Assembly: GCA_010015805.1 (NCBI GenBank)
Contig: ML978147.1
Span: 1-64,000 of the forward strand
From: Rhizodiscina lignyota
Lineage: Eukaryota
Direction of reading: 5' to 3'
Length of the DNA: 64,000 nucleotides
Shown: piece after piece, positions 1 to 21,675 of the stretch
How positions within the stretch are numbered: the first letter of the stretch is position 1
Layout: each line of letters begins with the position of its first letter
Program-made: the position numbers and the translations under genes
Notes under the pieces: generated by a model
Database searches by the model: none
Told to the model about the DNA's origin: nothing
What the model saw: only the letters and a program-made list of their open reading frames with translations

Positions 1-16
1 GTTAGCAGGTTCAAAT

Positions 17-33
17 CGGTTCGACTCGAACCG
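17..33. other. Perfect inverted repeat/hairpin CGGTTCGA-C-TCGAACCG near the putative element 3' end
   Basis: 8-bp arms (17-24 and 26-33). On the minus strand it is followed by 11 nt (ATTTGAACCTG) and then CTAA. Confidence 0.7.
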
Positions 34-91
34 GTCGTGTGGCACGAGTTAGACTCTATCTATCTATTAACAAGGTCTTATATCCTTTCCT

Positions 92-343
92 AGGGAGTGC
101 GCTCGGTGCGTGAGCTTATATGCAACGCTCCTCGGGCGCTCTTTTGAGAGCGTGCACTTAGTAAACCAGCTTTAATCTAGCGCTCTCTCAGCGCCTCTCT
201 GGAGGGGTGTGCTCGGTGCGCGAGCTTGCATGCAACGCTCTTCGGGCGCTCTTTTAGGAGCGTGTACTTAGTGAATTAGCCTTGATCTAGCGCTCTTTAG
301 GCGCCTCTCTGGAAGGGTGTACTCGGTGTACGAGCGTTGATGC
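92..343. repeat. 110-bp tandem repeat (2 full copies plus 1 partial; degenerate copy near 686-775)
   Basis: GCTCGGTGCG at 101 and 211, ACTCGGTGTA at 321. Copies differ mostly by transitions. Confidence 0.85.
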
Positions 344-370
344 GGTGCGTCCTCGCTGCCCCCCTCCTCA

Positions 371-935
371 GGGAGGATCCTACCTCGGCCTTCACTGGCT
401 TTCGACCCTTTTAGGTCCTCTGCCGGATCTGGAGGGCCTGGGAGGCGCGCCTTAGCCACCTCTCCTCTCTCGGAGAGGATTCGACCTCGGTCTTCACTGG
501 CTTCCAGGCCATTTCAGGTGCTTTACTGTATTTAGAAGGCCTTAGGGCTATAAATAAGGAGGTATATATATAGCCCTGCTCGGAGAGGATTCGACCTCGG
601 TCCTCACTAGCTTCCGGCTTTTGAGATACTTTGCTGGACTTTAAGCTGGGTGGAGGGTTGCGATCTAGATATACTCAAGGAACTTAGAAGCGTACTCGAC
701 GCACGAGCTTGTATTCAACCTTCTCTAGGCGCCCCTTTGAGAAGGTACGCGCAGCGCGCGAGCTGATCTCTGCTAGACTGGATAGAGTCACCACCATTAT
801 GCTTCTCAGTCATCCTGCTATCTTCACGCGATTTTACAGGAAAGAACAGTAGGCTTTATTAAGGGAGATATATATAGCCTTGCTCGGAGAGGATTCGACC
901 TCGGTCTTTACTGGCTTCCGGCCTTTGAGGTACCT
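371..935. repeat. Second subterminal repeat family, core GGAGAGGATTCGACCTCGGTCTTCACTGGCTTCC, 4 copies
   Basis: Copies at about 371, 472, 582 and 886. The last two are preceded by GG(A)G.TATATATAGCC.TGCTC. Confidence 0.85.
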
Positions 936-1006
936 AGCCGGCCTCTTCTATATAGGGTATGCTGCTACTACTAGCAAAGCAGTGAAGCGATCGTTTGCTG
1001 CTGGGG

Positions 1007-4000
1007 CTATTCTTCTGTACCTTGCACTAGTGCTCTACCATGCCGCCTGTAGTGACGATCGCTCCTAGCGATCCACTCCTCCCACTCTACCTTACTCCAG
1101 CTCGTCCAGGGCGGCAGCGCCGGAGGCCTACCCGGCCGGTGCCTCTTCCGCAGCCACGCCCAGTGGTTACGTAGCTCCTCGTCGCCTGCTGTCTCAGCTG
1201 GAGCTGCTGCCACTACCATCCCCCTCGTCCGTGGCGGCCGCGCTGCTGTAGCTCCCCTCGCTGCTCGCGCGTCTATATCGAGGCCGATGACACCGATCGA
1301 GTACCACATCCGCCCTCTGCCCTCACTCTTCTTCCCTGTGCCTGACAGGCCCGACTACTTATCCGCGTACGGGAGCAGCCAGTGGAACCTAAGCAGGTAC
1401 CTGCGTAGGCACTGGTCGAACACCCTCCCCAGCTCTACCTCTCCTCTTTCGCGCGGGAGGAGCTCGAGGCCGGCCCTCACCACGCTAAGAAGGGCGCGGT
1501 ACGACTTCCTCTCGTGCGCACCCGAGCGCGCGTAGCCGTCATCGCCCCCACCAGGGCTGAGCAAGACAGCAGCGACGTCTAAGGGGTGCGGGGTCCCGGT
1601 CTTGTTGCCTAATACGAGGTAGAGGTCGTCGCGCATAATCTCGGACAGGTACTCGTAGCAGAACGGCTGTAGGCCCTGGACCGCGCGCTCGTAGTGCTCC
1701 TCCAGCACCTGCTTACGGGCCATGCTGATAACGTCGGCGCGGAGCTGCTGCAAGCAGATGTGCGCCAGCCAGCGTACCATGCGTCCTACTATCTCCTCGT
1801 TGCGCCGGTGCTCTCTAGCCCACGATAGCGCCAGCTCCGCCTGTACACGCGCGTTGAAGAAGTCCTATACGCGGCCGCCGCGCTAGAGGTACTTCCCACG
1901 CAGCATGCTGCCGCCGAACAGCACATAGTCCGTCACGTCCGACCGGAAGGCTAGACTAGCCCACTTGAACCGTGGCTCCAGCCAGCAGTAGCCGTATTGC
2001 GGCAGCGTATTGCAGAAGCCCAGCCCTACCCACACCCTCTGCCGCCTGTTCTGCTCATCGCCCACCACCCGCTCACGGCGGCTCCACCATAGCGACGACT
2101 CCCTCCGCAGTTGGTAGCCGCCGAGCACGAAGCGGAGGCAGCGTAGGAACATAGTCATCATCTTCGTCTGTTCCCACGGTATCGACCTACCGTAGTGCTG
2201 CGCTAGGACTATTTCGAAGCCGGCGGCGAACTTATTAGCGCAGTGTCGGACGAAGCCTAGGTAGACGTCGGTCCTGATCGGCCACGCGTACGGCGGGCAG
2301 TCTGCAAGCAGGAGCTCTCCCTCTTGCTGCTGCTGCTGCTGCCGCTGCTCCCTCTCCTCTTGTAGCTGGGGGCCTTGTACGGCCTCGTGGAGCTCCAGGC
2401 GGTCGATGAGGCCCTGGAACAGCGACCAGCGTATCCGGTGCTCTTCGCGGATGCCGAAAGACTTTTGCGCAGAGTCTCGAAGCGCGGTGTCGGTACGGTG
2501 CTTGCTGGCGCAGTACGCATCCCTCAGCACAGCTGCGTCCCTGGAACGGCCTCCTGTGGCGCTACGGGCCCCCTGGAGGACTGCTGGGTCTATGGCCAGG
2601 TCCTCGAGGTCGCTGTTGGCGAATGGCATCTGCTTTGCAGCGTCCCACACCTCCTTCACCGACGCGTAGAACTGGCTGTAGACAAGGCCTCCCTGGCGGA
2701 GCTTAGAGCGCGCTGGCGGCACGCTTGTGAGGCTGCAGGCATCGCGGAGCATGTTCAGCTCAAAGTACTGCTGCCCACTGGTCCCAGTGGCCGGAGGGCG
2801 GCCGTCGTACATCCAGTGCGTGTAGCGCTCTAGGCAGCACCGCTTCCAGCAGTATACCTGCGCCTCATCGTCGATGTGCCGCCGCTGTAACCGAAGCAGG
2901 CTCACTTCTGGGCAGATCTCCTTCGCGAGGTCGACATAGAAGCGGTCCCTGTATACGAAGGCGAGGTCGAGGGCGCGCTCGATGTATGCCTCGAAGTGGC
3001 GCATCGCGTCTAGTAGTGCAGGCTGCGCCGCGCTTGTCTTAAAGCGTAGCTTTGTCCCCTTTGCAGAGAAGAAGAGCTGTGGATCGCGGAAGTTGCTAAG
3101 CTGCGGCGAGCCTCTGATGGTGTCCTGGACAGTAGCCCAGATGCGGTCGAGGTACAGTGGCTGGATATAGTAGCTGATACTCTGCTGCGTCCGGTACCCC
3201 TTCCCTCTCACGCTTCGGGCCTCTGTCTGGTGGGCCCGCGCGCTCGCTCGCGAGTGCGCGGCGCTGGCGGGCAGGTGCTGGACGTAGTGTGCACTGCAGT
3301 GCTCGTGAACTGCGGGAAGAAGGACGTCGTCGAGCCAGAGCGAGTACTGGCTGCTAGTCAGCGACGTAAACTTCCCCTCGTACGCGTGCTGCATATATGG
3401 GAACAGTATATGCACGGTAATCTCATCTGCGCCAGATACGCGGCCAAGCTGGAAGTGGGGGACGTCGCGGAGCATGGCGAGATGGGACTGTGGAGCGTAG
3501 GCAGTGTCGTGCTCGTCCTGCTGCCCTGTGAATACAGGCGTCTTTAAATGGATATCGGTAGTAATGTTCTGCGTTGGCATTAGTGCTAGCTGTAGCAGAA
3601 GCCCACCACGGGCTGCAGCGAGGCTACTACCGAATCCCAGGAAGCTATCAATGTCAAAGGCAACCTGGGCGCCGACAGCGCGTGTCTCCTCTGCGTGCAG
3701 GCAGACGCGCGCTGGGAGGGCCGGACGGCGCCGGCTACGTCCCTGGCGGATCCGCTGGAGGCCTACGAGCTGCTGCTGCTGGTCCTGTTGCGATATGATG
3801 CCGCAGAAGGTAGCCTGCCACTGCGCTTCTGTCGGCTGCTCCTGCTGCGCGAGGCGGTCTGGCGTGATGATATCGGGCAGCGAGAGCACGTTAGGAAAGG
3901 CCCCGTCGTTGGATAGGTCCCTTAGGCTGTAGTGCTCGCTGCCGACAGCTGCTACTGCTGCTTCGTGCTTGCGGCGCTCGTCTGCGTGCTCCTCTTCTGT

Positions 4001-4850
4001 GCAGCCGTAGAAGCCGTGTTGTAGCTGGTCGTATAGCTTCTAGACTGTATGATCGTGTGCTGGGAGCTCCTCGTCCCCCTCCTCTTCTCCTCTCTCCTGT
4101 ATACTACCTGCCAGTATACCAAGATCCGCGCCTAACGCTACGTTTGCGGCGTCTGCGGCGTCTGCGGCTGCTGCAACCGCTGCTGCTGCACTAGTATTAG
4201 CATCTTGACCTAAAGCTACGTCTGCTACTGCCGCCCTAGGATCTTCCGCTGGTACTACTGGCCCCGCCGCTGCTACAACCTGTACTGTATCTGCTGCTAC
4301 ACCCCATTCATCTACTACGCGTGTGTTAAGGTCTGTATCTACTAGTATATCGTCGGTACCCGGTGCGTCTACTACGCCTGACACGTCTGATATCCTAGTT
4401 TGTGGCGGGCTAGCGGAGCTAGTGACTTCGGCGGTAGGGGGAGGGCGCTGTAGCGTGTAGGGTGCAGTTGGGACGGTGAGGTTTGGTCGACGCGAAGGTA
4501 GGTTAGGTAGAGGAGAGATCTGTAGCGTAGGGAGGATGCTAGCGGCTATACTTGTAGCTGTACTCACAGCTGGTAGTAGTAATGGTGCTAGTGGTGGTGC
4601 TGGTAGTGGTGCTGGTGGTGGTGCTGGTGGTATAGTAGACGAGGACGCTACAGCGGGTGAGAGGGCTTGGAAGAACTGGCGGATACTATGCTGTCCTACC
4701 GTCGGTGGGGACTTTGACTTTGACTTTAACTTTGACCTCGACTTTGACTCTAGCCTCGGCTTTTCCCTAGCTTTAGCCCCAGTCTCGGTTCTAACGGGCC
4801 CACGCGCCGCCGCCACTTCTGAGTGTGGTGGGTTTGGGTAAGTAGAGAGG

Positions 4851-4893
<43 letters not shown>

Positions 4894-5495
4894 ACTTCTT
4901 CCTCTGCTACTGTTGTTAATGACGACGGTAATAATGACGACGGCGATGGCCACCGTCGCCGGTACAGCTGGCTGTGCTCCTCTACCTCCTCTGCCTCCTC
5001 CCTCCCATCCTGCTGCCGCTGCTCCTGCGCATCGAGGCTAAGGCCGAGGCCTTGTAGCTGCTGGCCGACGCCGGCAATGCTACTAAGCGTACGCGCAGCG
5101 TCTAGTTCGTTGAACGGGCGCTCAGCGATAGCATCGGCCTGCTGCGACTGCTCTATGGTCTGGTGTAGCTGTTGCGCCTCCTCCTCCCGTTGTAGCTCCC
5201 TCTTCTCCCTCTGGCGCGCCCGGTGCCGCCGTACGCGCTCTGCGACACCCCTACGCAGACTGAGGGCGTACGGGTCAGTGGTATCGGTCGATAGGGGCCG
5301 TCCCCTCTTAGGGCCTGAGGCTGGTGGCGCTACTGCTGGTGCTAGTACTGGTACTAGTGCTGGTGCTGCTGGTACTGCTGGTGCTGCTGGTGCTGCTAGT
5401 GCTGCTAGTGCTGCTGGTGCCGCTGGTACTGGTGGTGCTAGTGGTGCTAGTGCTAGTAGTGGTGGTGGTGGTAGTGGTACTAGCGGTGGCACCAT
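1007..5495 (-). pseudogene. Large (~1,500 aa) putative DNA-binding protein of unknown family, inactivated
   Basis: ORFs 4040-4816, 1883-3889, 1355-1780 and 1007-1309 share one frame. Manual translation across the gaps shows only TAG stops at 4040-4042, 1883-1885, 1865-1867 and 1355-1357. The N-terminal ORF 4791-5495 (AT-hook PKRGRP, basic helix ERVRRHRARQR) is in another frame, implying a frameshift near 4790-4900. Confidence 0.8.
4851..4892. repeat. (TGC)14 microsatellite inside the element ORF
   Basis: Read directly; encodes poly-Ala in the minus-strand frame, next to the inferred frameshift. Confidence 0.9.
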
Positions 5496-5674
5496 CTCTC
5501 CTCTTATAGCTGCCCTGCTCCCCTCCTACCCTCTATATGTATGGCGTCTCTAACCCTCTATCTGTCTATAGCGTATAGCGTAATAAAAGAGATAGTAGAG
5601 GACGAGCGATTGAAGAGGGGAGAGAGAGGATAGGAGACGGGTGGATGGCTACTACTACTACTGCTGCTATACTC

Positions 5675-6387
5675 GTCACGTGGGTGTTACAATCTAAAAT
5701 TGGATTAGAGCGCCTACCCCTGCTACCCTGCTCTGCAAGCAGCGTAGTAGCAGCGTCGCAGCAGTAGTAGCAGCAGCAACGGGCGATAGAAGGCTGAGAA
5801 ATGCTACGTTAAAATCAGAAGAGAGGGAGGCGGAGGAGGGCGTAGAGTAGCTGCTCACGCCTTTATTTCCGCTCTGTTAACGCTGCGCGCGCGTGCTAGC
5901 GAGACTTTGCGCTCTACTACAGCGCTTATCACGTAGGCGTTACAATTCAGCGCTAGCCCTCCGCCCTTCTACTCTACGAGCGGCGAAAGCAGCGCTAGGC
6001 GGCGCGAGCCCTTGGATAGAGCGAGAATAAAAGGCGCGCGCAGCTACTCTACGCCCTCCCCTACTCTTCTCTCTAATTATTATATAGTATATACTATCTC
6101 TCTCTCGCGCGCGCGCGCGCACAGCGAGCTACACTCTCAACCCTAGCTTATAGTCACGTGGGCGTTACAATTCAGCGCTAGACCTCTGCCCTGAAAGCAG
6201 CGCTAGGCGGCGCGAGGCCTTGGATAGAGCGAGAATTAAAGGCGCGCGTAGCTGCTCTACACCCTCCCCTACTCTTCTCTCTAATTATTATATAGTATAT
6301 ACCATCCCTCTCGCGCGCGCGCGCGCGTGTAGCGAGCTGCACTCTCGTCTCGACCCCTAGCTCGTAGTCACGTGGGTGTTACAATTC
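5675..6387. repeat. ~215-250 bp tandem units delimited by TCACGTGGGYGTTACAAT
   Basis: Motif at 5675, 5928, 6153 and 6367. Units 5928-6152 and 6153-6366 are closely similar (shared CTACTCTTCTCTCTAATTATTATATAGTATATAC and (CG)n tract). Confidence 0.9.
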
Positions 6388-6709
6388 ACCCCCTACGCCT
6401 CGCCCTCTCCCGCTAGCGACCTCTCCAACTTTGCCATACTTACTACACTACCACGCCGCGAGCTATTTAGTAAACAAGACCTACCCTCTGCTGCCTGTGC
6501 CCGCCGCTCGCCGTCCCGCTCTTTTTTCCCCCCTATTTAGGCCCGCCACGCGCCTGAGCCCTAACCCGAATCCGAGCCATAGAAAGTGCGGACGGGCGCG
6601 CAGCGCACAGGCCATACAAGCCCAGATTCAGGGGGAGAGGGATTCGCGACGGGTTCCCAGAGGGCAGTGAATCGCGACGCGATCCGTGCGCGTAACATGG
6701 GGGGCAGGC

Positions 6710-6791
6710 GGGTGAAATTGGGAAGGCGACGCGTTCCTAGGTGTCAACAAGGGGGTGAAATGGGGCAAGTTGCGGGAAGGCGACGCGTTCC
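6710..6791. repeat. Short direct repeats GGGAAGGCGACGCGTTCC x2 and GGGTGAAAT x2 near the putative element 5' end
   Basis: 18-bp exact repeat at 6720-6737 and 6774-6791; GGGTGAAAT at 6710 and 6753. Confidence 0.75.
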
Positions 6792-7727
6792 GGAGTAGAA
6801 TACTTGAGTAAACCCTAAATTATTCCCCTCTCGGTCAAAAGTCTCTCCTGGCTTTCCTGGCTTGGTCAAAGAGCGACTACGAATACTCGGACCTCGGGTA
6901 GAAATTTTACTCCAAGCCTCATGACGCTATTGTCGGTCCAGGCGTGTCTATGCTCAACCTTCTCTTGTTCGGCTCCATTATCTTTGACCGCATCGACGAA
7001 AGCCCTCCTTTGGTGCGAATACAGTCAAGGTTAGAATAGGGCTACTTGCCAATTGGCAGGCATTATTTGGCTCGGCGAAAGAGTTTGGATAACAACCTAT
7101 ATTTTATAGCTCTTTAGGCCTTGCCAAAGCCTACCTGTAGAATGATACTTCGGGCCCTGACGCAGGGTAGAAAGGCTACCTACGGGCCTCGCGGGAATTA
7201 TTCTTGAAATTATTCCCTGAATGGTCATGGCATATCAGAGAATGGGAGACCGTGGAGAAGGAGGGAACATGAGTCGCGGGCTAGTATCTATATACAGGGA
7301 ATGAGTTGAGGACATGCCGGCAAGGTTCAAGATATTTCGAGTACTGATTGGTCCCAAATCATATGGTCCCATCCCTTTGGGTTGCTTGCATGGGTTGGCA
7401 GAGTTCATTGGAGCCATCAGCGACGAAGAGAAGACTAATGCCTCGCGCCGACAATGTGGATGCGCTTGTTGCATGCAGGGCCTTTCCTTGCGGTCTCATT
7501 CCCCGTACCGTCTTCTCCACCTTCCCCCGCATGCTGTGGAGTATCCGGGGTATACCGAGAGTCTAATGGCTCGTCCAGCTGGGGAATATATCTGGGGTGG
7601 AGTCGAGCTGACAAGGTGGAGATTCGCCGGACAATCTTGATGTTCTAGCCGCGTCTTGATTGTACCTCGTCAATACTCGCCTTCGTTGCTGTCCAGAGCT
7701 GTAGTACATTCATCTCCTTTTGTAAAG

Positions 7728-9467
7728 ATGGGTCTCTTAACAAGCGATCGCATCCGCTTCATCAATGTGGCTGTGAGTAAACAGAGCCTTGATCCACCTG
7801 TACATTCTCTAATTGGGACATAGATCACAGTGTTCGTCTCACTGGGCTCATTCACATACGGCTACTGCAGTTCGATCATTGCGACTACGTTGGGCCAGCC
7901 ACAGTTCTATGAGTACCTCCATTTGGCTCAGACGGGCCCGGGGCTCAGTCATACCAACGACATAACTGGTGCGATGAATGGACTGTTCCAGGGCGGAGGC
8001 GTTTTTGGAAGCCTTGCTGTGGGGCCAATAGCCGACAAGTTCTCTCGACGTGGCTCTATTGCGATTGCGGCATCGATTTGCCTTCTCGGTGGTGCATTGC
8101 AATGTGGTGCTGTGAACGTGGGAATGTTCCTTGCAGCAAGATTCATCACAGGTACATCTGCCAGGCCCTAGCTTTCGACTCAGTCTAACACATGGCAGGA
8201 TTCGGTACTGGAATGATCTTGTGCAGCGTCCCACTGTACCAGAGTGAACTCGCACCACCCCATTCTCGAGGCGTGTTGGTTGGCATCCACGGAGTGTGGA
8301 TTTGCTGCGGTTATTCCACTGCCGGCTGGGTTGGTTATGGTTGCTTCTACTACACAACAGCCTTCCAGTGGCGGTTTCCCCTCGCAGTGCAATGTTTCGC
8401 TCCAATCATGCTGCTTATCGGACTATTCTTCTTGCCTGAAAGTCCTCGGTGGCGTGAGTATTGATAACAGCCCTTACCGCGGAAAGCTAACTTGACCGTA
8501 GTGGCTCTCCAAGACCGGCCCGACGCTGCATACAAAGTCATCAAATATCTACACAATGACCCGAATGATCCGCAGCAAATCCTTGCAAAGGAAGAGTATT
8601 ACGCAATGCAGAAACAAATCGAGCTGGACAAGTCCAAAGGCACTGGATCATACTATGAGCTATTCACCGTCCCGGCGAATCGAAAACGCGTCCTACTTGG
8701 ATTCATGACTCTGTTCGGTGCACAATGCACCGCAACAATTGTCATCAACAACTATGGCATCATCCTTTACACCGCCCTTGGTTACCAGGCGCCTACCACA
8801 CTTGCCTTCACAGCTGGCTGGGTCACAGTCTGTATTGGTGGAAATGCCGTAACAGCCTTGTTTGTGGATCGAGTTGGACGTGTTAGATTCCTTCGTGAGT
8901 CTCTCCTCTAGACACTACATTGTCGTGTGGAAATGGTCTAACCTTTGGACAGTCATTGGCTTCGCTGGTTGCCTGCTTGCCCTCATCATGGAGATGTGGC
9001 TACTAGCTGTCTACGAACATTCATCGAATAAATCGGGCCAGGCAGCCGCCGTAGCCTTCCTCTTCATCCACGTCGGCTTCTTCAGTGTATGTATTGACGC
9101 CACCACTTACATATACTGCACCGAGATTTTCCCAAACTATCTTCGTTCCAGAGGCTCTTCGATGTCCGTGAGTGGCTTGTTCTTCGCAACCGTCATTTTC
9201 ACCTGCGCTGCACCGGCTGGGTTTGGTGCAATCGGATGGAAGTACTATCTCGTCTTTGCCATCCTAACATTCTTCATGATCATTGGCATCTGGTTCTACT
9301 GGCCGGAAACCAAGGGATTGTCCTTGGATGAGATTAATGCGCTATTCGGAGATGACGTTGCAATTGATATCTCCCATCTTACTGAGGAAGACAGAAAGGC
9401 ACTTGATCAGCAAATCCTGTCAGAGAAGTCTCAAGTTGAGAAGGTCGAAGATATGGACGCAGTCTAA
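7728..9467 (+). CDS. MFS sugar-porter family transporter (multi-exon, apparently intact)
   Basis: ATG at 7728 (MGLLTSDRIRFINVA, then a GTGAGT intron). Motifs ADKFSRR, YQSELAPPHSRG, PESPRW, VDRVGR, EIFPNYLR, PETKG; about 12 TM segments. Confidence 0.92.
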
Positions 9468-10216
9468 GGCGAAAAGCTGGGCATGGAGTGCTGTAATCGG
9501 GCGGCATTGGATTGCATTCTTGGACGGTAGTCTGTAGGGAGAGGGTTGAAAGTTATCGAATGTTTGTCCCAACAAAATGTCATCAAAGACAAATTGCTCG
9601 TTCCTTAAATGACCGGAAGGCCGTGAACTTTTTTGGACTGCTTCATTTCCCTACCTCTCTAAAGATAGACCTGCGTCTCTGTCGTGACGCTCTTATCTAA
9701 GTAGCAGCCTCACTTCGAACCCAGATACTCCTCTTCTCTTCGTTAATTATTTAAATTTAGCTATTTAGTATTCAGTTTGCTTTTAATACCGTGAATTAAT
9801 AGCTACTGTATGTACCCCGCTTAGTTAAACCCCGCCACCTTTACCGGTAAGGTAGTTATCGCCTGGCCATTTTCCGAGTTAGATTCTTCTGCTTTACATA
9901 ACTAATGAGACTCGACCAGTGACTGGCTGTCTTTCCTCACTCGCATGACCCCTGAGACTGCGATTGGGATAAGCGGCCTGAGATGACTTCTCATTCTATC
10001 GTATCTCTCGATTCTCCGAGAGACCAGGGCATGGAACTTCCCAAGGAGAACGTATTGAACGAGTCAGTCAACTGGCACGGCTCGGAGTCGCCGTGGGCTT
10101 CGGAGTCCTAATTTCCGATGCCTTTCTCCTTATTTTAGTGTATATAATCGGTCAGGGAGCCCTCTCCTCCCTTAGCCCTCTCAATCCTTTAATTCACAAG
10201 CTTTCTAAGCCTTTTC

Positions 10217-12439
10217 GAGAATGCTCACTATTTTCAACGATTTGATGTGAGATTCGTTCGACAGAACGGGGCTCAGATTATCGAGCTTTATCGGCGTAGA
10301 CGCCGCCAGAGAGCTGGCCGCGCGTGTCTGCGTTGCCATGAGAAAAAGGTGTTTATCGGTCATTGATGTATCACGCAACTCGTATTTGTACATGGGCTGA
10401 CACAGAATTAGATCAAGTGTGATCTTCTAGAACGGACAAAATACGCACCTGCGAGATGTCAGAATTGTATCACTGCAAGTGCTTTCTGCCAGTGCGTTAA
10501 TACCGATATGTTTCTATTGTAGTCTCTGATAGCCATAGGTTTCGAACGTCCCATCGTGGAAAGCGAAAACGTCTCCCACCGCCTCCTCTTCTCGGAGCAG
10601 AGCTTCCTACACGACTGAGCATTGGAAACTTGATCGACCAGTCAGAGAATCTGCAGAAGTCATACAACCATCGCGGTGAACATCCACGCGGCAAAGCTAA
10701 CAGCAGTACCGTCTTGATGCCATATTCGATCTCAAATGAGTCTGTCGACTATACGCCACGTCAGCTTGACACAATACCTGGGCAAGACTCGCTGGCACAG
10801 CCGTCCTCAAGCATACTAGACCATATAGAAGATGCAAGTCAGTCCCCTCTTGTGGATAACACCAGTACAGAGTCTTTGCTTTCACATGATATTAGCCATC
10901 CGCCTCACAATCTCCGAAGCTACCTGGGCGATACCGGATGTATGCAGATATTCAGCGCCGACAATGCCCACAGCACATCTGCAGCTACTTTACTGATGGA
11001 ACGACATCATGATATGGACAGCATTTCATATGGACTCATGCAGAGCTATCTCGAAACTTATTTCAACTACATCTACCTATGGTGCCCAATCCTGGACAGC
11101 CAGACAGTCCAGGCAGCTTCAGGGGCACTTTCTTCGCCAATGCTGAGACACGAACTTGCTCTTTGTGGGGCACATCTCAGACCTCCTTTGCTGCCTCATA
11201 CTTCTTGTATCGACCATTATAGGCGTGCTAAAGGCCTTTTCTACGCGAATCATCCGGATAATCCAATCTCGCAATTGTGCTCGATCATGTTGTTCCACTG
11301 GTATCGTTTGGACCAACCAAATCTAATCAGCGCAGATAGCAACTGGTGGTGGATTGGTACATCGATTCGTCTGGCCCAACAGATTGGCTTGCATCAGAAA
11401 ATGGGTAGGGGTCAAAGCGTACGTCCCGGATAGACTCCGAGTCTAAGACGCAGAATATGGTGGACACTATTTGTGAGTATAGCAAGACATTCACCGGGGC
11501 TGAGTCTGATATCTTATAAAGGCCAGGGATCGCATTGCAGCCTTAGCGCAAGGTATGCCACTTATTATTGATGCAGACTCCTGCGAACTGGAGATGGTTA
11601 CGCTAGACGATTTTCCTGATCCGACCGATCTTGGAGCGACGATTTTCATGCATTGGGTGCAATTATGGGATATTGCTGGCCAAATAACGAAAGAACTGTC
11701 TCGAAGAAGAGGCCTCCAAAGCAATGCACCCCTTGCCCGAAAATTGATTGGCTGGGTGCGATCCCTACCCAGATCTTTGCAACTACCGATTGGCGACCTT
11801 TCAGCAGCTGGCTTCAACCGAGATGTGTATTATCTCCATCTCGGCTACCTTGTCGTCGTGATCCTGATTCACTTAACAACGGGTCCAAAATCGATTAGAA
11901 ACACATCCATGCCCGCGATTGCAGCAGCCTCCTGCATCGCAGGTATCTACAAAGTATATCTCAGGCGTGGCATTGTCTGTGGGTTAGGTCCGGAAGCTTC
12001 CTGGTATGCTAGTGTGGCCATTCTAGCCCTTCTACACGCCCGTCGGGTGCAAGGCCTTGCCTCGAGCCTTAATGACGATATCGCCACGTTACAGCTTGCT
12101 TTGAAAGAGCTTTCTGCGTGGTTAAACACTAACAGAATGTTTAAAATCGGCATAGATAGGCTGCTGAAAGCGAAATCCGCAACACCGAACAAACATTCCA
12201 GTGACCACGATGACATTACAGGCTTCTACTTACCCGAAGATCCTAGCCACGGCATCACCAGCGAGAGTTCACAGTGGATGGATTATTTCCCGTCTGTCAC
12301 AGGTCAGACAAGTGCACTCCTCGCTTCTCTAATGGTCAAAGATTGCGTGTGGATGCCTTTTCCTGAGATGGATTGGCCATACGACGTCGCGCTGCACCTT
12401 CAAGAGCTGTTTGAAGACTTAGATGCTCATGTTCTATAG
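10217..12439 (+). pseudogene. Zn(II)2Cys6 transcription factor with fungal-specific TF domain, disrupted
   Basis: Spliced zinc cluster RACLRCHEKK/IKCD...RCQNCITASAFC and middle homology region IRLAQQIGLH...RRRIWWTLF. In-frame TAG at 11431-11433; no in-frame ATG found upstream of the zinc cluster. Confidence 0.8.
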
Positions 12440-13295
12440 CACACGTGCTGTTAGAATCAGGTCTACATTCTTGAGCAGCTTGCTTCTGTTGATATTGACG
12501 GCGCCTCCACACCCACATTTCTTGCGCTGACGCTTGATTTCGTCAAACGAATTTCTCGTTAATGCAATTGCCGAAAGTACCGCAGCTTGACGCATATGTA
12601 TGGGATGATGTTAGTCGAACAATTAAAAACAACAACAATTCGGCCGGAAGGGACTTCGTTTCGGAAAGCAACGTGTGAGGGGTTGACATATCAAGCAACC
12701 ATCTTCCATGGCATACTAGAAAGGATTTCTTTTAGTGGAGATCCTTTAGAAATTTGCTCATCTCGTATAGTCGTACACCCCGAGCTTCATATTTGGACAC
12801 CTTGGGCTCATCTTGCCTGATGGTCTAGAAGGGACTAAGCCATCTTTGCAGAGCCTGGCAGCCTAGTCTAACCCCAAAGGTGAGCGTGATAGAATAGAAT
12901 AGCTACCACAAAAGCTACAGTGCAGGTAATCGACCACATACACCGAATATAGTGCTCGTTTGATCTAGTAAGGCAGTCGTCGGCATACGTAGATCCGGAG
13001 CTGAATTGACAAAGCCGATTCGGTGGTTGGCGGCCAAAAAGGGGAGGGGGAACGCCAGAGTAGCCGGAGAAGTGAACCAATAGCAGCTAACTTTAGGCCG
13101 AGCTCAGTGCGGAGGTGCTTAGTTTTATATGAGCCGGAACTGAATCAGTTATTGGCCGCTCCGGAATAACAGTGCTTCGTGGGAGCGTAAATAATCACGA
13201 CTTACAAAGTCCCTCATAATATCTCTTTGCACATTATCGTCTTTTCTATCATTTGACCCGTAAAACTTCCAATTTCTTGAAGGCCAGTCCTAATC

Positions 13296-14188
13296 ATGAG
13301 TGTCGAAGGAAAGGTTTTTGCCGTTACTGGTGGAGGGTCGGGTAAGTCTCAGGCCTCCGACCCGGCCGTACATTAATGGTATCGTTTTCTGAGACCCCAT
13401 CAGGTATGGGTGCTGCTATTTGTCGCCTCCTGGCTGAGCGAGGTGCGCGAGCCGTTTGTGCCTGCGACATCTCCTCAAAAGGGTTCGAAGATCTGAAAGC
13501 ATCCATTGCGAAAATCAGTCCGTCTGCAAAGGTTCACACTACAGTCTTGGATGTGACAAAGTCGAATGACGTCGACACCTGGATTACAGACATTGTCAAG
13601 ACCTTTGGTGATTTACATGGCGCAGCCAACGTTGCAGGCCTGCCGCAAGCACTCGGAATGAGAACACCCCCAAACGTCATCGAAGAAACCAACGAGATGT
13701 GGTCTCGGATTATGGGAGTCAACTTGACGGCGTTTTTTACTGCAATCGAGCAGAGATTCGCGCAATGAAGGACCTTCCGAAAGTGGATCGTGCCATCGTA
13801 AATATCAGCAGTATGGCATCGCTGAAGCACGATCCCGACATCTACGCCTACTGAACCTCCAAGGCCGCATGCGCTCATTTCTCCCAAAGTGTGGCGAAAG
13901 ATACACAGAAGTTCGGCATCCGTGTTAACTGCGTCTCGCCAGGCGAGTCTCCCATCTTCTTGGTACGCAAAGTCTTACCGGCTAACTCTTAGATTTCCAG
14001 CATCCACTCAAACGCCCATGATGAAGGAGTTCATTGGTGGAAATGAAGCGCAGCTAGAGGATTGGAAGCAGAGAGGATGGGAAATGATGGAGCCTGAAGA
14101 TATCGCACGTGTGGTCGTCTGGTTACTGAGCGAAGACTCTAGATCAGTGTTTGGTGCCAACATCAACGTCGGCGCTGGTCTACCGTGA
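13296..14188 (+). pseudogene. Short-chain dehydrogenase/reductase, disrupted
   Basis: MSVEGKVFAVTGGGSGMG Rossmann motif. A 1-nt frameshift near 13725 (VNL[D]GVFYC) and a TGA at 13852-13854 inside the catalytic YxxxK motif (Y*TSK). Confidence 0.85.
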
Positions 14189-14617
14189 TCTCGGAATGCT
14201 CAGATCTTCAGCTCATTGTCGTACACTGCAGAGCTCAAACTTTCGACTCGGAAATGAGAGAGACATGTGGTTTCTGCCATATCTTTACGATTTCCAAGTG
14301 CAATAAAGTTGTAACAAAAGCTGTCAAAAGGATCCCTTGGGTGAAGTATACAACTGTAATCTTGCGGTCAACGAATGGCCAAACTCTCACGTTGTCATTA
14401 GTAGAGTCTCAACAATTGTGTGCAATGTTTCAATTCCCGTAGAGACGAGAAACCTTTCGGGCCGATGAAATTTCCTAGTACCCAGAGAATTGAGAGAAAC
14501 TGACTTAAATTTGTGGAAACACAATACCTCAGTAGACTAGAATTAAAAAGACGCTAAGACCGCAGCCTGCTTGGTATTGCCAAACTACACGCGAAGAGCA
14601 TTGTGAAGCGTTGGTGC

Positions 14618-16258
14618 CTATTTGGCGCTGAGCTTCAGACCTTGATACTGATCTTGGGCCTCCTGGTCACAACGTGCGCGGTATGAAGGACAACTGCCGC
14701 TGTAGCGAGCAACGATCCTCTTTTGTCTGCCCTCCACGTTGCTGTTCACTCCAGTCATCCAGGAGTCCACATCATTCGAGAGTAAGCCTTTCGCTGCCTC
14801 GTGTACGGTGTCTGTCCATTCCTCGACACTCTCACCTTTAGGCTCGATATAGTTGATGCCATTCTTGGTGGAATAATCAAGGAGCTCGGATATCCACTCA
14901 ACACCATATTGAATGCTGATTGGAATGTTGCGCAACGCTGCGTGTGGACCCATGACCATCATCATATTAGGAAATGCTTCCACCATCAGACCGAGGTACG
15001 TCCGTGGTCCGTTATTCTAAGCCTCTTTCAATCGCAGTCCTCCCAAGCCCCTAATATCGATCCGATCAAACGCTCCCATGACGGGGTCGAACCCGGTCGC
15101 GTAGATAATTACGTCGAATTCGTATTCCTTATTGTGGGCGGTCATGATTCCATCAACGGTTATCCGATCGATTGGGGTCTCTGTCAGGTCTACCAACTCC
15201 ACGTTGTCTTGGTTGTAGACCTCGTAGTACTTGGTCTCAAGCGGTACTCGGCGAGTACCAAACCCATGATCTCGAGAGATCAGTTTCTCAGCAACCGCCT
15301 GGTTCTTGACCCTTTCGCGAATCTTCTTCGCGATGAATTCGCTGAGGAGACTATTCGCTGTTCGATCGACCAGTACGTCCTTGTAGTTGCCCATCCAAAT
15401 TCCGAAACCCGGTGAGTCGTAGAGGGTCTGCCAGAACTTTTCTCGTTCTTCTGGCGGTGTTTCAAGGGCGGCTTTGGGGCTCGCTCGATGGATGGAACCG
15501 CCAAAAGATCCACGACAGTGTTCAAATAGCTCCGGATAACCCTTCTTAATCTTCTCCATCTCTTCGGGAGAGACTTTGCTATTGTGGAGCGGCTCGCACC
15601 AGTTGGGCCTTCGCTGGAAAACCGATAGATGGGCTGCCGTCTTTGAGACTTCTTGAATCGTCTGAACGCCGGTTGCACCGGTACCGATGACTGCTACCCG
15701 TTTGCCGGCGAAATCAATACCAGACTTTGGCCAGCGAGCAGTATGGCATGACTGTCCCTTGAACTCATCCAGCCCAGGGTATCTAGGGAGCGTAAAGGCA
15801 GACAGCGGACCAAGACAGGTTACGAAGAATCGAGAGCGGAAGCTTTGTTTGTCGTCGCTGGCCAGAACCCAGGTATTGCTGCTCTCATCGAAGTGTGCCG
15901 ATGCTACACGCGTGGAGAACTGAATGTAATGACGAACGTCGAATTTATCTACCATGTAGTTGATGTATTTCTCTGTTTCCGGCTGGGGAGCGAAATGTTC
16001 TGACCAGTTCCATTCTTGTTGGAGTTCCGGTGAGAAGCTGAAGCCGTAGGTATAGCTTTCAGAGTCAAAGCGGCATCCTGGATAGCGATTCCAGTACCAC
16101 GTACCGCCTACATTCGTTCCAGCCTCCAGGCACTTGACCCGCAACTCCAACTGGAGGATTTTGATGAGAGCAAGACAGCCCGAAAGCCCTGCCCCAACAA
16201 TGATCACGTCGTATTCTGGGGACGATGTCTCGTTGACTTGAACGCTGTTCTGCGTCAT
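14618..16258 (-). pseudogene. Type I Baeyer-Villiger monooxygenase (cyclohexanone/phenylacetone monooxygenase-like), one premature stop
   Basis: GAGLSG, GGTWYWNRYPG, BVMO fingerprint FKGQSCHTARWP, GTGATG, ATGF. TAG at 15017-15019 replaces the usual Trp of W..GPRTYLG; the downstream ORF continues in frame. Confidence 0.9.
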
Positions 16259-17441
16259 CGCAGGCGTACTTGAGCGATTCTTCTTGGCTGAGAGCGGATA
16301 TACTTTGTCTTTCTGCGCTTTCAAGGGAGTCACTATTTGATTCTGCGTAAGTCTGATTGTGGGATAACTGGGTAAATTTCAGACAGGTCATTTATATTGC
16401 CGAGGGTCTCCATCCTCGGTTGCCTGTACGGAGGCCATTTCACCTCCACGACTAGTATGGCCAACCCGACGGAAAGGTCGGTATTCGGGTTGATTCTCCG
16501 CCTACAGTGACATGTATGCTCAGTGCTGGAAGCCAAACGAGGTTTCTCGGCAATTAAAAGGCAGAGCAGAAGCCGAGAGCTTCGATATTGCGGGTGACCG
16601 AATATGCATCTTCCGGCTATATGCAAGCTTAACGAACACTACCCCATGAAAGCCAAGTCCGGGGCAAATCAGTTGTTCCACAGACCTCCGGGGTTCAGCC
16701 CCATGCTGCCGCATGTGCAGAATAGGTCAGTCAAATTTACAGAGCCTCTGTAATCCACGGAGATGCCAGAGGGACATTGAAGGGAATAGATATTGAAGGG
16801 AATAGTGATGGGACTGCATGCAAACTCTCATAACCCGAATTGGATCTGTGCAACTCACAGGATGTCATCGCGGTACTTAAACAATCTCTGGAATGCAGAG
16901 CTCGGGGGTTCTAGCCGTTTTGAGACAGACCAAACTCCGATGGTCCATCATCGACCTCCGTTCACCTTTCAATGCAGCACCAAAAGGAAACAGAATCATT
17001 GTCGGAAGTCGGAAGATTCAACGCCAGAGGTGAGGGATGCAAAGGCGGGAGCTGGTGTCGGCCTTTAGGAGATGACCTTTGGTGCGGAAGATGAAGGTGA
17101 TCAGGCAGACGCTAAAACCAGAAGAGATGCAGCAAAAGCATCAAGTGGCTCTAGTGGTGTCATGGCGAGCGCAGGGATGGAGCAGCTGTAGCAATCGCCA
17201 AGTAAACATCTCCCAAATATGATGTTGTTGATAATTATATCACTTTAAGCCAATGTCCATCTCTTCCACAGCGGTCGGATAACGCACTTCTCATTGGCTA
17301 AAACCTTTGCCATTATCGTGATAAATTACGAGTCGAAATTGAATGGCAGGAACAGCATAGAGCAACCTCCTGTTGGAAGGATGCGGAATCGATACCTTGG
17401 AAATCCCAATTGTACTCTGAAACGATGAACAGTAACATCCA

Positions 17442-18749
17442 TCAAGGGCCGCTGGCAATAACCCATTCCTCTCTGTTATGATCAAATCTCAGCGAGGTGC
17501 GCTCATTGTACTTGTCGAATCCCACGACTGTCACGTCTGCCTTCGGAAACAGATCGTCGATATTTCTCTTCCTAAAAGCCTTCCAACCCTTCTTTCGCAA
17601 GAACGCCAGGTCTTTGCCTTTCGTATGTGCAGTGACTGGCGAATCTCTAAAACCCCTTGCATCATTGCCTCGTCTCGCAATGATCAAAGCTGCCCTGTCA
17701 AGTCCAAATTGCATGCCAACAAACTGCCGCTTATTCTCCACGTCGTACCATGGCTGCACACGTTCGTTCGTCATGTTCGGAGATGTAAGCTCATATGGTT
17801 CCCAGAGACTTGGATTCTCGGAATTGAAGCAGGAAGAGGAATAAGCTGGCGGGACCCCTGGTACCGAGAGCGAAGCATATTCGTTGCGCTTTGCGAGATA
17901 CAACTCAAGCCTGGCTCCAGATTCAGCACCATCACGGTCGAGAAGCAATTCCTTACATCCAGAAGGATGCAGCAGAGGCAGAGAAATATGAGGCCAGGTC
18001 CAAGTGACTCCCTTAACATCTGTCGTACTCAAAGAACAGCTCAGCCTTTGGCTTGAACTGATCATTCGCAGCTCTTTCCAACCACCACTCCACGAGATTA
18101 ATTGCGCCATATTCGTAAGCGAATGAAGACCGCCGAGGCCAAAGTCATTGCCGTCGGGTGCGAGGACTGTGAGGGTGTCGAGGCGAAGATCTGGCAGCAA
18201 TTCCAACACATGGAACAGCGGCAGGTTATCCTCTTCTGATGGTGGTGAACAAGAACCATAATACAATGTCAATTCACTGCTGACTTGATCAGGCCTCTCT
18301 TCCAGTATTTTCTTCCGACGGCGCTCGATAGATCGCTTTGTTGCTGGCGAAACACTAGAGTTCACTGCAACGCAAACATGACGGATCTGTACGATTAGGA
18401 TGCTCCGCGGTGCAGAGGCAAGGAGCCCAAGCATACTCAAGGTACTGTCGAAATTGAACAGCGTATGCTTAAGCCAGAGACGTCTAGCTACGTTTCGAAG
18501 TTGTCGACAAGTATGCAGAAGAGCAAACGAATCTGCCCTCGGTTTGGTGACATCTCTCACCCAGACGACTTCTCCTCTTTCAATCCAGGCACCCTCATCT
18601 CTACGAAATCGTTCCCCAAAGGTAACTCGAGTTGACGAAAAGACGTCGATGAATACAAACTCCTGGAGTTCGACTGGTAGCTTGAGTAATCCTGAAACCC
18701 CTCGAGCCGACGCGGTTTGTTTGGGTGTCGTCTGTCGTGCCAAAGCCAT
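17442..18749 (-). CDS. Hypothetical protein with F-box-like N-terminus
   Basis: Uninterrupted ~435-aa ORF; LLKLPVELQEFVF and LLHTCRQLR are typical of fungal F-box-like hypotheticals. Confidence 0.7.
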   Translation of the reverse strand: MALARQTTPKQTASARGVSGLLKLPVELQEFVFIDVFSSTRVTFGERFRRDEGAWIERGEVVWVRDVTKPRADSFALLHTCRQLRNVARRLWLKHTLFNFDSTLSMLGLLASAPRSILIVQIRHVCVAVNSSVSPATKRSIERRRKKILEERPDQVSSELTLYYGSCSPPSEEDNLPLFHVLELLPDLRLDTLTVLAPDGNDFGLGGLHSLTNMAQLISWSGGWKELRMISSSQRLSCSLSTTDVKGVTWTWPHISLPLLHPSGCKELLLDRDGAESGARLELYLAKRNEYASLSVPGVPPAYSSSCFNSENPSLWEPYELTSPNMTNERVQPWYDVENKRQFVGMQFGLDRAALIIARRGNDARGFRDSPVTAHTKGKDLAFLRKKGWKAFRKRNIDDLFPKADVTVVGFDKYNERTSLRFDHNREEWVIASGP

Positions 18750-21675
18750 GATAGTGGTTTCCAATTGCGAAATACGAAATTTGACTTATTCGAAGAGTTC
18801 CGAGACCTCTACGAGTCTCAATTGCGTGGTTGAATAAGAGAAAAGTGGATTTGCGGATGGAAGGCCAACTCTCTCATCCCTCGAAAGACAAGAATGAGGG
18901 TAAGACAGGGCAGGCGCAGCTGAGATTTGAAGAGAAGGATGCGATTGAGAAATACATCTCTATATAGAGGAGCATGATCAGTCAGCAGCTGAATGTATTT
19001 CATTGTCTTCTTCAAGAGCATGCTTAGATGAGTCAGCTGCTACTTAAAGCCACAAAGCGATGCCGTATCATGATACTGATACGGAGTAGATGACCGACAA
19101 ATACCTTGCATATGAAGGGAAAGGTAACCCCAGGATATGCCAGGTTGAAGCCGACATCCGGTGAAATATTAAGCAGCTGGGAGGTGATGGCAGTCGGTGA
19201 GGCGGAGGCGGAGGTTTAATGTCATTTCTGGAATAGCGCTCTCCGCAGCAACATCCTTTTCCGTCGTCCTTCAGGAGAGTTCGACACGGATCGAAATATG
19301 ATGGCGCTTCGATGGCGCTGCACCTCACAAGGCAGATATCGTAGCAATGCCTTCGGATCGTTTGGCCGAATGCCAGCTCGAGCACAATCGTCAACTGCCT
19401 CATTTAATAGCATCTTGTAAAGGAGTACAGGACGATCTCCTCCTCTCGACAAGTCCTCCCATTCATCAAGCTGCCGAGCAGTTACTACGATCAAACGAGA
19501 CCACAGGATCCCACAATCCAGCCTTTCCGCGACAGTATGCCCGACAAATATTTCCACTCCCACGCTGAAGCCTTTCCGTAATCCCTTTCGCTTTTCCACA
19601 ACCTCCGTCCAATCGAATCGAATCTCGCCATCGTTCGGACTTCCAACCGCAATTCCGAGTCTTCCCATGCGGGCTACAATGAAGGATGACACACCAGGGA
19701 TTAGAGCATACAGCTTGGAGAGAAGTGCTCGGTGGCACGCTGACTGGAATTCTCAGCCCAGCCAATGTTGTCTGGAAAGGCTCCAGCACGGCAGAGAGTC
19801 AACGATCCGAAGATTCGCAATTCACGTATGTTATATATTGATGAAAGACGAGAAGCGACCCAACAGAGTAAGTTGTGCAAGGATCACGGCCGATATCGTA
19901 GACAATGTATTGACAACCATGGCGTATGAGTGCAACGCACGTCTGATTCGTAAAGGTTTACTCGCGATGGAAAGGTACAAGGAACTTCTACCATCACAGC
20001 AGGACCGGTTCTGGAGCCAACTGGTGACAGATGAGAGATTCCGTCAGAACACCCATCTTCATCCGAAACAAACATTTTGGGATTAACTGTACAGCGACAA
20101 GTCTTCCTCCCAGTCAGATTCCATATCCCAAAAAGAACGTGAGGAGTGTAGGTATGCTCTGGACAGCCATCATTCCGATAGATGTGTGCTTGGCGATCGG
20201 CGCTCCGCGCGGGTTACAAGACAGGATTGTCGACGAAACAGCGGTGCTCAAAACTCGCAGCCTCCAAGAGAAAACAACCGACTACAATACATGAATCCAA
20301 CTTCACCGATCAGTCAGCAAGGCAACGTGCTAATGAGTGCTTCTTCGAGAATCCGAGAAGAATCATCGCCCACTTTACCAACTATCCGTCCCACCGAAAG
20401 AGTCCCAGTTCGTGCCTACGCTCACGGCGGCCCCAGGACAACCTCCGCACCCACAACTCCTTATCCTACAGGGTATGGTTAAATGCGGACGAGGTCTGAT
20501 TGCATATGAAGAGAGAGTTGGGGACCGAGTTGAAGGGGAACTTGACGCGAGTATCTGAGAGGAGGAAGTCCGTGTTGCGGCGCTAGAGCAGAGATTCGGG
20601 GACGTATGGACAGAGCGGTATAACAACGAGCGGAGAGCCAGGAGGACAAACTGTCGTAAATATACATGAGATATTTGAGAGGATAATTGCAGCAAAGGAT
20701 TTGGTGGCGTACCATGTGAGCGTGTCTTTGGAGCTCGTGCCGATGCAGTTTCAGCTGATCGAGCGCGGGCAGAATGAGAGGTAAAGCCATAAAGTCACAG
20801 CCATTATTGACACTCCGCCAACGCTTGAACACGTAGTCATGTTGCATTGTGCTTCCCAGAATTTTCATGAAAATGACTTCGGAATTACGTTTAAATTCCG
20901 TTTCCAGTCTCCAACCTCGATGTTCTCTGAGTAAAGGCCAACCTCAAACGCTTCGCATAGCACACTACATCCAATGCAAAACTTACAGCATCACCAGCAT
21001 ATTTGACCCACTGGTTGCATTAATGGGTATTTCGAACCCAGTTGATATTCTCTGATATGGAAACAGCTCAGCGAAAAGAATCTAAATCGCTGTTGGCGTA
21101 GGTTTTCAATTCGCCTAGTCTGAAGCACTCTGAAACCCAACTGTTAGATCCTACGCTAGCTGCATAGACCACCAAAAAGGTAACAATGTCTGAATATCTA
21201 ATATTCAGACGTTAGAAGGCGTATATATACGACCCTAACACCAACCGTCGACAAATTATTCCAGACCTGGAACTGAGACTCGGCCATGAACGCTGTATTG
21301 CTTATTCTGTGATATCTTGAAATTAGACTACGAGCACTGCAAAATAAATCGCTTGACTTTGACTGTTGAGATGCTTCAGAGTTCAGACTCATCCAGCAGA
21401 AACATTCGGACCAGTCAGACCAATATGTCCTGCCATTTTGCTCGCTGCGTCCCAATCAGTATTCTCCTATGTATCCCTTGCCACTCATTGAGCAAAGTAA
21501 CGCCCCTGTCTTTGAGAGCTTAGATTCCGCTATCAACGCCGCTAAAACATCGCGAGCTCCGAATTCTGGAATCAGTTGAAATCAACCACTAGATTTGCAA
21601 ACGTACCATTTGCGCTCCGAAGTTCCATTGCAAAGTCGAGAATTTCGAGACTGTCGTCTGCGGATCGCCTGATGC

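Follow-up and report, generated by a model that had tools for sequence, protein, structure and literature searches.

To our knowledge, helicases and reverse transcriptases are the only types of enzyme known from telomere-associated elements. We analyzed a stretch of 64,000 nucleotides of the fungus Rhizodiscina lignyota (positions 1 to 64,000 of contig ML978147.1, assembly GCA_010015805.1), hereafter the window, whose first 6811 positions are one copy of a multicopy single-gene repeat that is lightly altered by repeat-induced point mutation (RIP) and is untranslatable. The explanation that we favor, and to which we give an even chance, is that the repeat is a selfish telomere-associated element similar to the Y' elements of Saccharomyces cerevisiae, spreading by terminal copying with a DNA-binding enzyme of its own.

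Three groups of telomere-associated elements are among the described systems closest to this repeat. Y' is a multicopy unit of 5–7 kb with one long open reading frame (ORF), located directly inside the terminal repeats, with telomere-repeat tracts at its inner border or between copies, and it spreads among chromosome ends (PMC4522978, in part). The repeat resembles Y' in these features and differs from it in three respects: Y' encodes a helicase and the ORF of the repeat belongs to no known family, Y' is confined to Saccharomyces, and not all copies of the repeat are terminal. Families of telomere-linked RecQ helicases (TLH) occur in Magnaporthe, Ustilago, Zymoseptoria, and Fusarium (portions of PMC4522978 and of 10.1101/2024.02.27.582403). 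According to these, they have, like the repeat, a large intronless ORF (~3.5 kb), a multicopy state, a position adjacent to telomeres, and frequent damage by RIP or truncation; in contrast to TLH, the protein of the repeat contains no RecQ or superfamily 2 helicase domain and has an unrecognised fold. Finally, telomeric retrotransposons (MoTeR, FoTeR, telomeric Penelope-like elements, HeT-A/TART) are similarly located at chromosome ends in a fixed orientation with telomere units at one border, and their repeat-bearing 3' end faces away from the telomere (PMC4522978, in part). In the repeat described here it is the 5' end that is the inner one, and neither a reverse transcriptase family (Pfam) nor a polymerase fold was detected. 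The features that are new here are a repeated 16-nt motif upstream of the ORF, (TTAGGG)n ends in 3 of 33 related loci, and telomere-like units at the element boundaries.

The window unit contains one giant ORF on the minus strand, framed by two repeat-bearing flanks (Table 1). A sequence-only reading of this DNA had described a unit of ~6.8 kb with a reconstructable ORF of ~1,500 aa, repeat arrays on both flanks, RIP-like mutations, and no long terminal repeats (LTRs) or long terminal inverted repeats, and had deduced from RIP that the unit is or was multicopy. All of these features were recovered. The ORF spans 1506 codons from stop to stop, the 3' flank contains 110-bp and 42-nt units, the 5' flank contains 208-bp and 19-nt units, and comparison of the repeats of the window unit revealed neither LTRs nor long inverted repeats bracketing it. 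An intact relative of 1176 aa, P0001, aligned collinearly with the window in tblastn searches, residues 4–95 matching positions 5309–5004 (frame -3) and residues 148–1171 matching positions 4504–1064 (frame -1). The change of frame occurs at a (TGC)14 microsatellite (4851–4893). Four in-frame TAG codons interrupt the ORF (4040–4042, 1883–1885, 1865–1867, and 1355–1357), the one at 4040–4042 aligning with Q in the relatives. The four TAG codons and the frameshift indicate that the window copy is a pseudogene. No second copy of the gene was found in the 64-kb window by tblastn with P0001.

Other copies were read from X1, the sole sequencing run with this DNA, in the form of contigs that were compared with positions 1–20000 of the window; no RNA run containing the sequence was listed. 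At a likeness of at least 80%, 240 contig pieces matched this region. The summed contig depth, which is not a copy number, was 506 over positions 1–667, 224–314 over the ORF, and 566, 1177, and 492 in the three bins covering positions 5337–7337, for a flank baseline of 153–159 from position 7338 on. Thus, depth was higher over the 5' flank than over the ORF, and it was raised only over positions 1–7337 and at one small repeat near 10053–10264. The differences between the other copies and the window copy were C>T (310) or G>A (390) in 700 of 713 cases, leaving 13 of other kinds; among the 40 differences listed, 673 more being unlisted, 38 were located at CpA/TpG or CpG. The dinucleotide indices of the window point in the same direction, since TpA/ApT was 1.5–2.0 in the unit (1.51 in the 3' flank) versus 0.57–0.70 outside, and (CpA+TpG)/(ApC+GpT) was 0.84–1.06 versus 1.31–1.35. 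The G+C fraction was 0.56–0.63 in the unit and ~0.49 outside, indicating that the window copy is only lightly mutated. These results indicate that the unit is repeated in its own genome and that the other copies were hit harder by RIP than the window copy.

Relatives of the gene were encoded by 33 loci in a scan of metagenomes, at 41–67% identity, several of these loci being near-duplicates of one another; a scan queried with the window protein returned no relative. Each locus contained one family gene, L021 containing in addition a partial second copy. The loci share a common plan, with a 5' region harboring 2 to 6 copies of the 16-nt motif, one intronless ORF of ~1,200 aa, and a 3' region containing tandem arrays that differ between lineages. 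Whole units of 4.4–5.3 kb stand alone on contigs, bordered by unrelated DNA or telomere arrays. Several copies of the motif, AAGAGCGTnACAATTC, precede the ORF in relatives with only ~50% protein identity. Its consensus is AAGAGCGT[T/G/C]ACAATTC, and all 2 to 6 copies are in the forward orientation. Allowing up to 3 mismatches, 45 matches were found in the 33 loci and the window stretch, versus 1–7 in 20 shuffles. The motif was present upstream of the ORF in 11 of the 16 loci covering the start of the gene together with 150 nt or more of upstream sequence, L008 carrying a variant. In the window itself, 4 matches were found for 1.08 expected. Locus L018 contains two more forward copies of the motif ~550 nt past the ORF stop (13836–13893), with no second ORF detected after them.

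Three close copies define the termini of the unit. The alignable sequence of loci L015, L016, and L017 starts at one shared 5' point, TCACG...TTAGGGTTAGAC, and stops at one shared 3' point, ...CATAGGGTTATACCCTAACCTCT (end ...TAGGGTTATACCCTAACCTCT); outside this interval, the three contigs are dissimilar. The flanking ORFs also vary among the loci (MFS, SNF2, OrsD, dynamin, DUF6604, PIF1 fragment, BTB). Comparison of L015 with L017 (92% identical) gave a ratio of nonsynonymous to synonymous substitution rates (dN/dS) of 0.11, indicating strong purifying selection on the ORF. Identity between the same two loci was 98% in the 200 nt preceding the ATG, ~90% in the 3' flank, and ~79% at synonymous sites. 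Constraint therefore acts on the ORF and on portions of the non-coding flanks. Other copies have decayed, with in-frame stops in the core domain in L002, L024, L025, L031 (16 stops), L009, L030, and the second copy of L021. The sequence-only reading had proposed a mobile element and had suggested examining whether homologs share termini and are located at non-syntenic loci. The close copies L015–L017 share exact ends beside unlike flanks, and neighbor genes differ across the 33 loci. The multicopy state, RIP, shared termini, differing neighbors, and a dN/dS of 0.11 lend partial support to the proposed mobile element; transposition itself is inferred, as neither an empty site nor a duplicated target site was detected.

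Two further arrangements were observed in these loci. In L021, a contig of 4.3 kb, the family gene copies occupy positions 203–3154 and 3542–4258; the second starts at residue 480 and contains stops. This arrangement is a nested or truncated tandem. A 15-nt satellite (GTGCATCTCACAGGC type) is present on both sides of the unit in L005 (1–164 and 4545–4776) and L006 (1–282 and 4669–4914), and in L022 (4463–4886) and L028 the ORF is followed by a 15-mer of related sequence (CAGGTGCACGGCCAG). The satellites on both sides in L005 and L006 could correspond to head-to-tail tandem units parted by satellite.

Telomere arrays flank some of the copies. Three of the 33 loci (L003, L016, and L031) terminate in (TTAGGG)n, located 3' of the gene and on its sense strand. 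In L016, (ATGTGG)n (about 5370–5415) runs into the terminal (TTAGGG)n. In L003, a (TATGTGG)n array (5290–5500) with scattered TTAGGG-like units precedes the terminal (TTAGGG)n. A variant short-repeat array thus lies before the canonical repeat in two distant lineages. L031 is the end of a 373-kb contig, in which a RIP-hit copy is located 9.5 kb from the terminal (TTAGGG)n. L013 contains TTAGGGTTAGGG 2.5 kb downstream of the gene, and L001 contains a degenerate TTAGGG array upstream of it. In the window, two telomere-like units, AACCCTAAA and CCCTAACCC, are oriented as if the chromosome end were to the left, which is also where the ORF points. The presence of telomere arrays 3' of the gene and of telomere-like units at the borders favors a terminal element of the Y' type over a generic transposon.

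On this basis, we propose that the element tends to be the outermost unit of a chromosome arm, located beyond the remnant of an old telomere. The ORF would be transcribed toward the telomere, and telomere-repeat remnants would be located at the inner boundary. The element would spread as DNA between chromosome ends, in the manner of Y', and its copying onto an eroded or broken end would use the telomere-like units at its borders. The protein might act on nucleic acids as a metal-dependent enzyme and use a basic helix at its N-terminus for DNA binding; it would bind the 16-nt repeats and promote or prime copying.

Several observations weigh against this proposal. Only 3 of the 33 loci end in telomere arrays, 2–10 kb of ordinary DNA without a telomere lie 3' of the gene in L010, L018, and L022, and the copy in L032 is fragmentary and internal to a 115-kb contig. 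The window contains no telomere array, the side on which one is expected being cut at base 1. The motif is reversed relative to the gene in the window, whereas every related locus containing it has it in the forward orientation. Over the ORF, depth amounts to only ~1.5–2 times the baseline, implying that few copies are alike enough to match at 80%. Empty sites, target-site duplications, and presence/absence polymorphisms were not detected, the own genome of the window not being covered by BLAST, and the unlike flanks of L015 and L016 belong to metagenome contigs, whose ends may be chimeric. Finally, Y' and the fungal TLH elements encode helicases, whereas no helicase family was detected by Pfam in this protein, and no significant sequence or fold match indicates its activity.

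The protein was further characterized with a stop-free piece of 718 aa (window positions 1886–4039) as the query for similarity. This piece has 109 near-length relatives, the best showing 57% identity over 718 aa, and members of the family are ~1,150–1,230 aa long. An exhaustive HMMER scan of cluster representatives (50% identity) returned 955 matches at E values up to 0.001, of which 263 had E values up to 1e-30. The only named sequences among the near-length relatives are PV08_03722 of Exophiala spinifera and PV07_12538 of Cladophialophora immunda, and Fusarium mundagurra is the source of one of 11 longer relatives. The family spans Eurotiomycetes and Sordariomycetes. An NCBI source is available for 5 of the 109 near-length relatives, indicating that the distribution of the family over annotated genomes is patchy. 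A literature search, including the accessible portion of PMC4522978 (Repbase and Dfam not covered), returned no description of the family.

The claim of the sequence-only reading that no transposase is recognisable held as far as Pfam goes. No family was detected in any of the five window pieces (E up to 1). Among 16 relatives, nothing relevant was found, the only matches being a below-cutoff TetR row (P0230) and a UBA-like domain (P0177), and precomputed Pfam assignments contained no domain in any of the 109 near-length or 11 longer relatives. Specifically, reverse transcriptase, HUH/PIF1, DDE, tyrosine-recombinase, DUF3435, and helicase families were not detectable by Pfam in the window pieces or the relatives. 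AlphaFold produced confident models, with a predicted local distance difference test score (pLDDT) of 79 for the full protein, mostly above 90 for the core (residues 270–1176), and of 88.5 for the window domain at 2615–3715. Fold searches covered the full model and the core-domain model, the C-terminal helical half (~874–1176) being included as part of the full model. Foldseek searches of the PDB gave best E values of 0.22 (full model) and 0.5 (domain model), and a search of BFVD with the full model gave 0.13. With both models, no RNase-H-like chain was present among the rows listed by Foldseek or VIA-align, and no polymerase fold was found in the PDB fold searches. A PDB profile search returned only rows with E values of 0.3–0.9 in the low-complexity N-terminus, and the best score in the ESM Atlas was 0.79, under the lead level of 0.9. 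In an alignment of 43 diverse members, the invariant positions (P0001 numbering) were D381, D383, G448, P463, K578, D618, C649, G699, Q704, Y706, R779, E781, R783, G900, and R1072. With the invariant residues D381, D383, K578, D618, Y706, R779, E781, and R783 in a confidently modeled core, the protein looks like an enzyme.

A bolder reading, which we regard as possible though doubtful, is that the repeat is an autonomous eukaryotic mobile element of an undescribed class. The ~900-aa core, whose fold would be absent from the PDB, would perhaps be a very remote and expanded relative of the Rep_trans tyrosine nucleases; it would recognise the 16-nt motifs as iterons in its own 5' region and attach copies to chromosome ends. 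Such an element would be a DNA-based counterpart of the telomeric retrotransposons.

An unlikely explanation, and the most probable of the rivals, is that the repeat is a host subtelomeric gene family. In this view, ectopic recombination between chromosome ends multiplied an ordinary but fast-evolving gene, a fate common among subtelomeric genes, the duplicates were subsequently mutated by RIP, and the motif is a normal promoter element for a host factor. The strong purifying selection, the conserved block next to the promoter, the many intact ORFs, and the location of some copies beside telomeres would all fit such a gene. There is also a precedent from another fungus, in which the gene of a host DNA methyltransferase underwent amplification among telomeres and was subsequently mutated by RIP (PMC4522978, in part). 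However, the exact termini shared by close copies are not the ragged edges of a duplication, the 3' non-coding region is conserved above synonymous sites, and the flanking genes were different in every locus examined. The very large divergence (955 clusters at 50% identity) and the small number of fungal species named among the relatives (three, with an NCBI source for 5 of 109) are also at odds with a host gene.

We consider it quite improbable that the repeat represents a new class of general DNA transposon, mobilized through nicking and a rolling-circle-like mode of copying. In that case, the core would be related to Rep_trans but hugely expanded, with acidic metal ligands and a tyrosine, the 16-nt repeats would be iterons next to an origin-like hairpin, and the proximity to telomeres would reflect only a safe haven or a survival bias under RIP. 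Rep_trans proteins (PF02486) are recognized by an RxDxAxD strand, an ETxYxG...RxYxK motif with the catalytic Tyr, and a WRxE strand. The pT181 proteins RepC and RepD resemble the family in the order of the acidic-strand, Tyr, and R-x-E motifs and in the presence of iterated sites upstream of the gene, and Rep_trans proteins occupied the top two structural rows, both weak. Comparison by hhalign with a Rep_trans profile gave no support in two tests; the profile comprised 10 sequences because the protein search gave, among 120 sequences listed, only sequences at least 86% identical. The two groups also differ in the size of the core (~900 aa versus ~300 aa), and the repeat is a chromosomal element of a eukaryotic host. 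The resemblance to the Rep_trans initiators is thus weak and statistically unsupported.

The sequence-only reading had described the 3' hairpin of the unit as Helitron-like. Helitrons encode an HUH endonuclease fused to a PIF1-like helicase of superfamily 1, begin with 5'-TC, end with CTRR-3' preceded by a hairpin 10–12 nt before the end, and insert at AT without target-site duplication. The repeat shares with them the absence of long terminal inverted repeats, the single giant ORF, and a short hairpin near the 3' end, of which one example is located at window positions 17–33 and another is TAGGGT-tat-ACCCTA in L015–L017. In contrast to Helitrons, the repeat lacks an HUH Rep and a PIF1 helicase, since no Helitron or PIF1 family was found by Pfam in the 5 window pieces, 16 relatives, and 11 longer relatives. 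The hairpin followed by CTAA is indeed present in the window, CTAAC lying 12 nt past the hairpin on the gene strand. Since this CTAA coincides with the start of the window, its status as a terminus cannot be demonstrated, and the Helitron-like label, which relied on this window-edge hairpin and on no Helitron protein, is not supported. Where the termini are defined, in L015–L017, the unit starts with TCACG and ends with ...CCCTAACCTCT, not with CTRR, and no constant A|T is present at the flanks.

Other classes of mobile element were sought by Pfam. No tyrosine recombinase of Cryptons or Starships (Phage_integrase-type) and no DUF3435 captain was found in the window ORF, 16 relatives, or 21 flank ORFs. 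The transposase families of DDE cut-and-paste transposons (hAT, Mutator, CACTA/KDZ/Plavaka, Tc1, PIF) were absent from the window pieces and the 16 relatives, and for retroelements (LTR, LINE, Penelope-like, DIRS) there was neither a reverse transcriptase family nor LTRs. We assign the element neither to the Helitrons, Cryptons, or Starships nor to the recognisable DDE elements, a very diverged DDE fold being conceivable. It is very improbable that a larger known element (Starship, Helitron, LTR, or other) extends left of base 1 and that the repeat is a piece or cargo of it, as the left end of the unit being out of view and a PIF1-helicase fragment 1 kb downstream of a family fragment in L032 would allow, since whole units of 4.4–5.3 kb stand alone between unrelated DNA or telomere arrays, neighbors vary from locus to locus, and no DUF3435, reverse transcriptase, integrase, or Helitron Rep was present in the 21 flank ORFs examined. 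In L032, the ORF concerned (12334–13608) encodes fragments of Pif1_2B_dom and PIF1, the family gene is represented by a C-terminal fragment, and a stretch of 18–39% G+C follows; this region may be a graveyard of repeats that includes the remnant of a Helitron.

If the Y'-like proposal is correct, Pezizomycotina carry a widespread and so far unannotated family of chromosome-end elements, with at least 955 protein clusters at 50% identity, whose protein differs in type from both helicases and reverse transcriptases. This would provide a new enzyme family to study, a new marker for poorly assembled fungal subtelomeres, and information on how chromosome ends are rebuilt or parasitized. On the most modest reading, the repeat accounts for recurrent 'hypothetical protein' contigs in soil metagenomes and offers a defined repeat, marked by a conserved cis motif, for use in annotation.

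Table 1. Features of the repeat unit in the window and at its inner boundary.
Feature	Position	Strand	Remarks
Element 3' flank, downstream of ORF	1..1006	-	Non-coding, repeat-rich; outer end at or beyond window edge
Perfect 8-bp hairpin, CGGTTCGA c TCGAACCG	17..33 (arms 17-24, 26-33)		Direct sequence inspection
Tandem array, 110-bp unit x2.3	92..343		3' flank, repeat family D8
Four dispersed 42-nt units, CTCGGAGAGGATTCGACCTCGGTCTTCACTGGCTTCC type	362..919		3' flank, repeat families D7 and D10
Giant ORF, now a pseudogene	1007..5495	-	ATG at 5495, terminal TAG 1007-1009
Conserved beta-rich core domain	2615..3715	-	Invariant acidic residues in FDIDS and YVDxGKE motifs
Frameshift zone between N-terminal and main frame	4794..4891	-	ORFs 4791..5525 and 4040..4891 overlap in different frames
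Pro/Ala-rich N-terminal extension, microsatellite-encoded	5329..5488	-	Without counterpart in relatives, which begin M-P-x-KRGRP
Element 5' flank, upstream of ORF, carrying the repeated motif	5496..6811	-	Raised contig depth
19-nt core x4	5675..6385		5' flank
Variant of GYGTKACAATTC motif core	5675-5693	+	Repeat comparison
GYGTKACAATTC, three exact copies of motif core	5937-5948, 6162-6173, 6376-6387	+	Inside 208-225-bp units
Tandem array, 208-bp unit x1.9	5985..6388		5' flank
Telomere-like unit CCCTAACCC	6559..6567	+	Within 5' flank; loose end at 6584 common to 5 contigs
Telomere-like unit AACCCTAAA, reading TTTAGGGTT in gene orientation	6811..6820	+	Exactly at inner repeat boundary

The two borders of the window unit were defined to different extents. 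On the right, unique flanking sequence begins at ~6781–6811, as a single-copy 3.3-kb contig of X1 that shows no differences has its start at 6781 and the RIP indices change at ~6811. The next gene beyond the unit encodes an MFS sugar transporter. On the left, the X1 contigs hint at a possible boundary, one of them breaking at 23 and a loose end lying at 52. The longest ORF in the 3' flank is 87 aa at most. One X1 contig contained a joint from 6810 to 5594, going back 1217, indicating that the 1.2-kb 5' region is apparently tandem elsewhere in the genome.

Minor candidates were also considered. Rfam gave no match in window positions 1–7300 (E up to 0.1) and none in five related loci (gathering score). 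A tRNA reading of window positions 8–19 (GGTTCAAATC) was rejected by eye since the neighboring bases do not pair as a T-arm. The 10-mer GTGAAATGGG, common to window positions 6752–6769 and to the telomere-side flank of L015/L016, was dismissed as a chance match, its orientation being opposite. Inverted repeats were not found in window positions 9900–10450, which surround the small repeat at 10053–10264. The latter is a separate dispersed repeat of ~210 bp, with a summed depth of 1007 versus a baseline of ~155 and loose ends on both sides.

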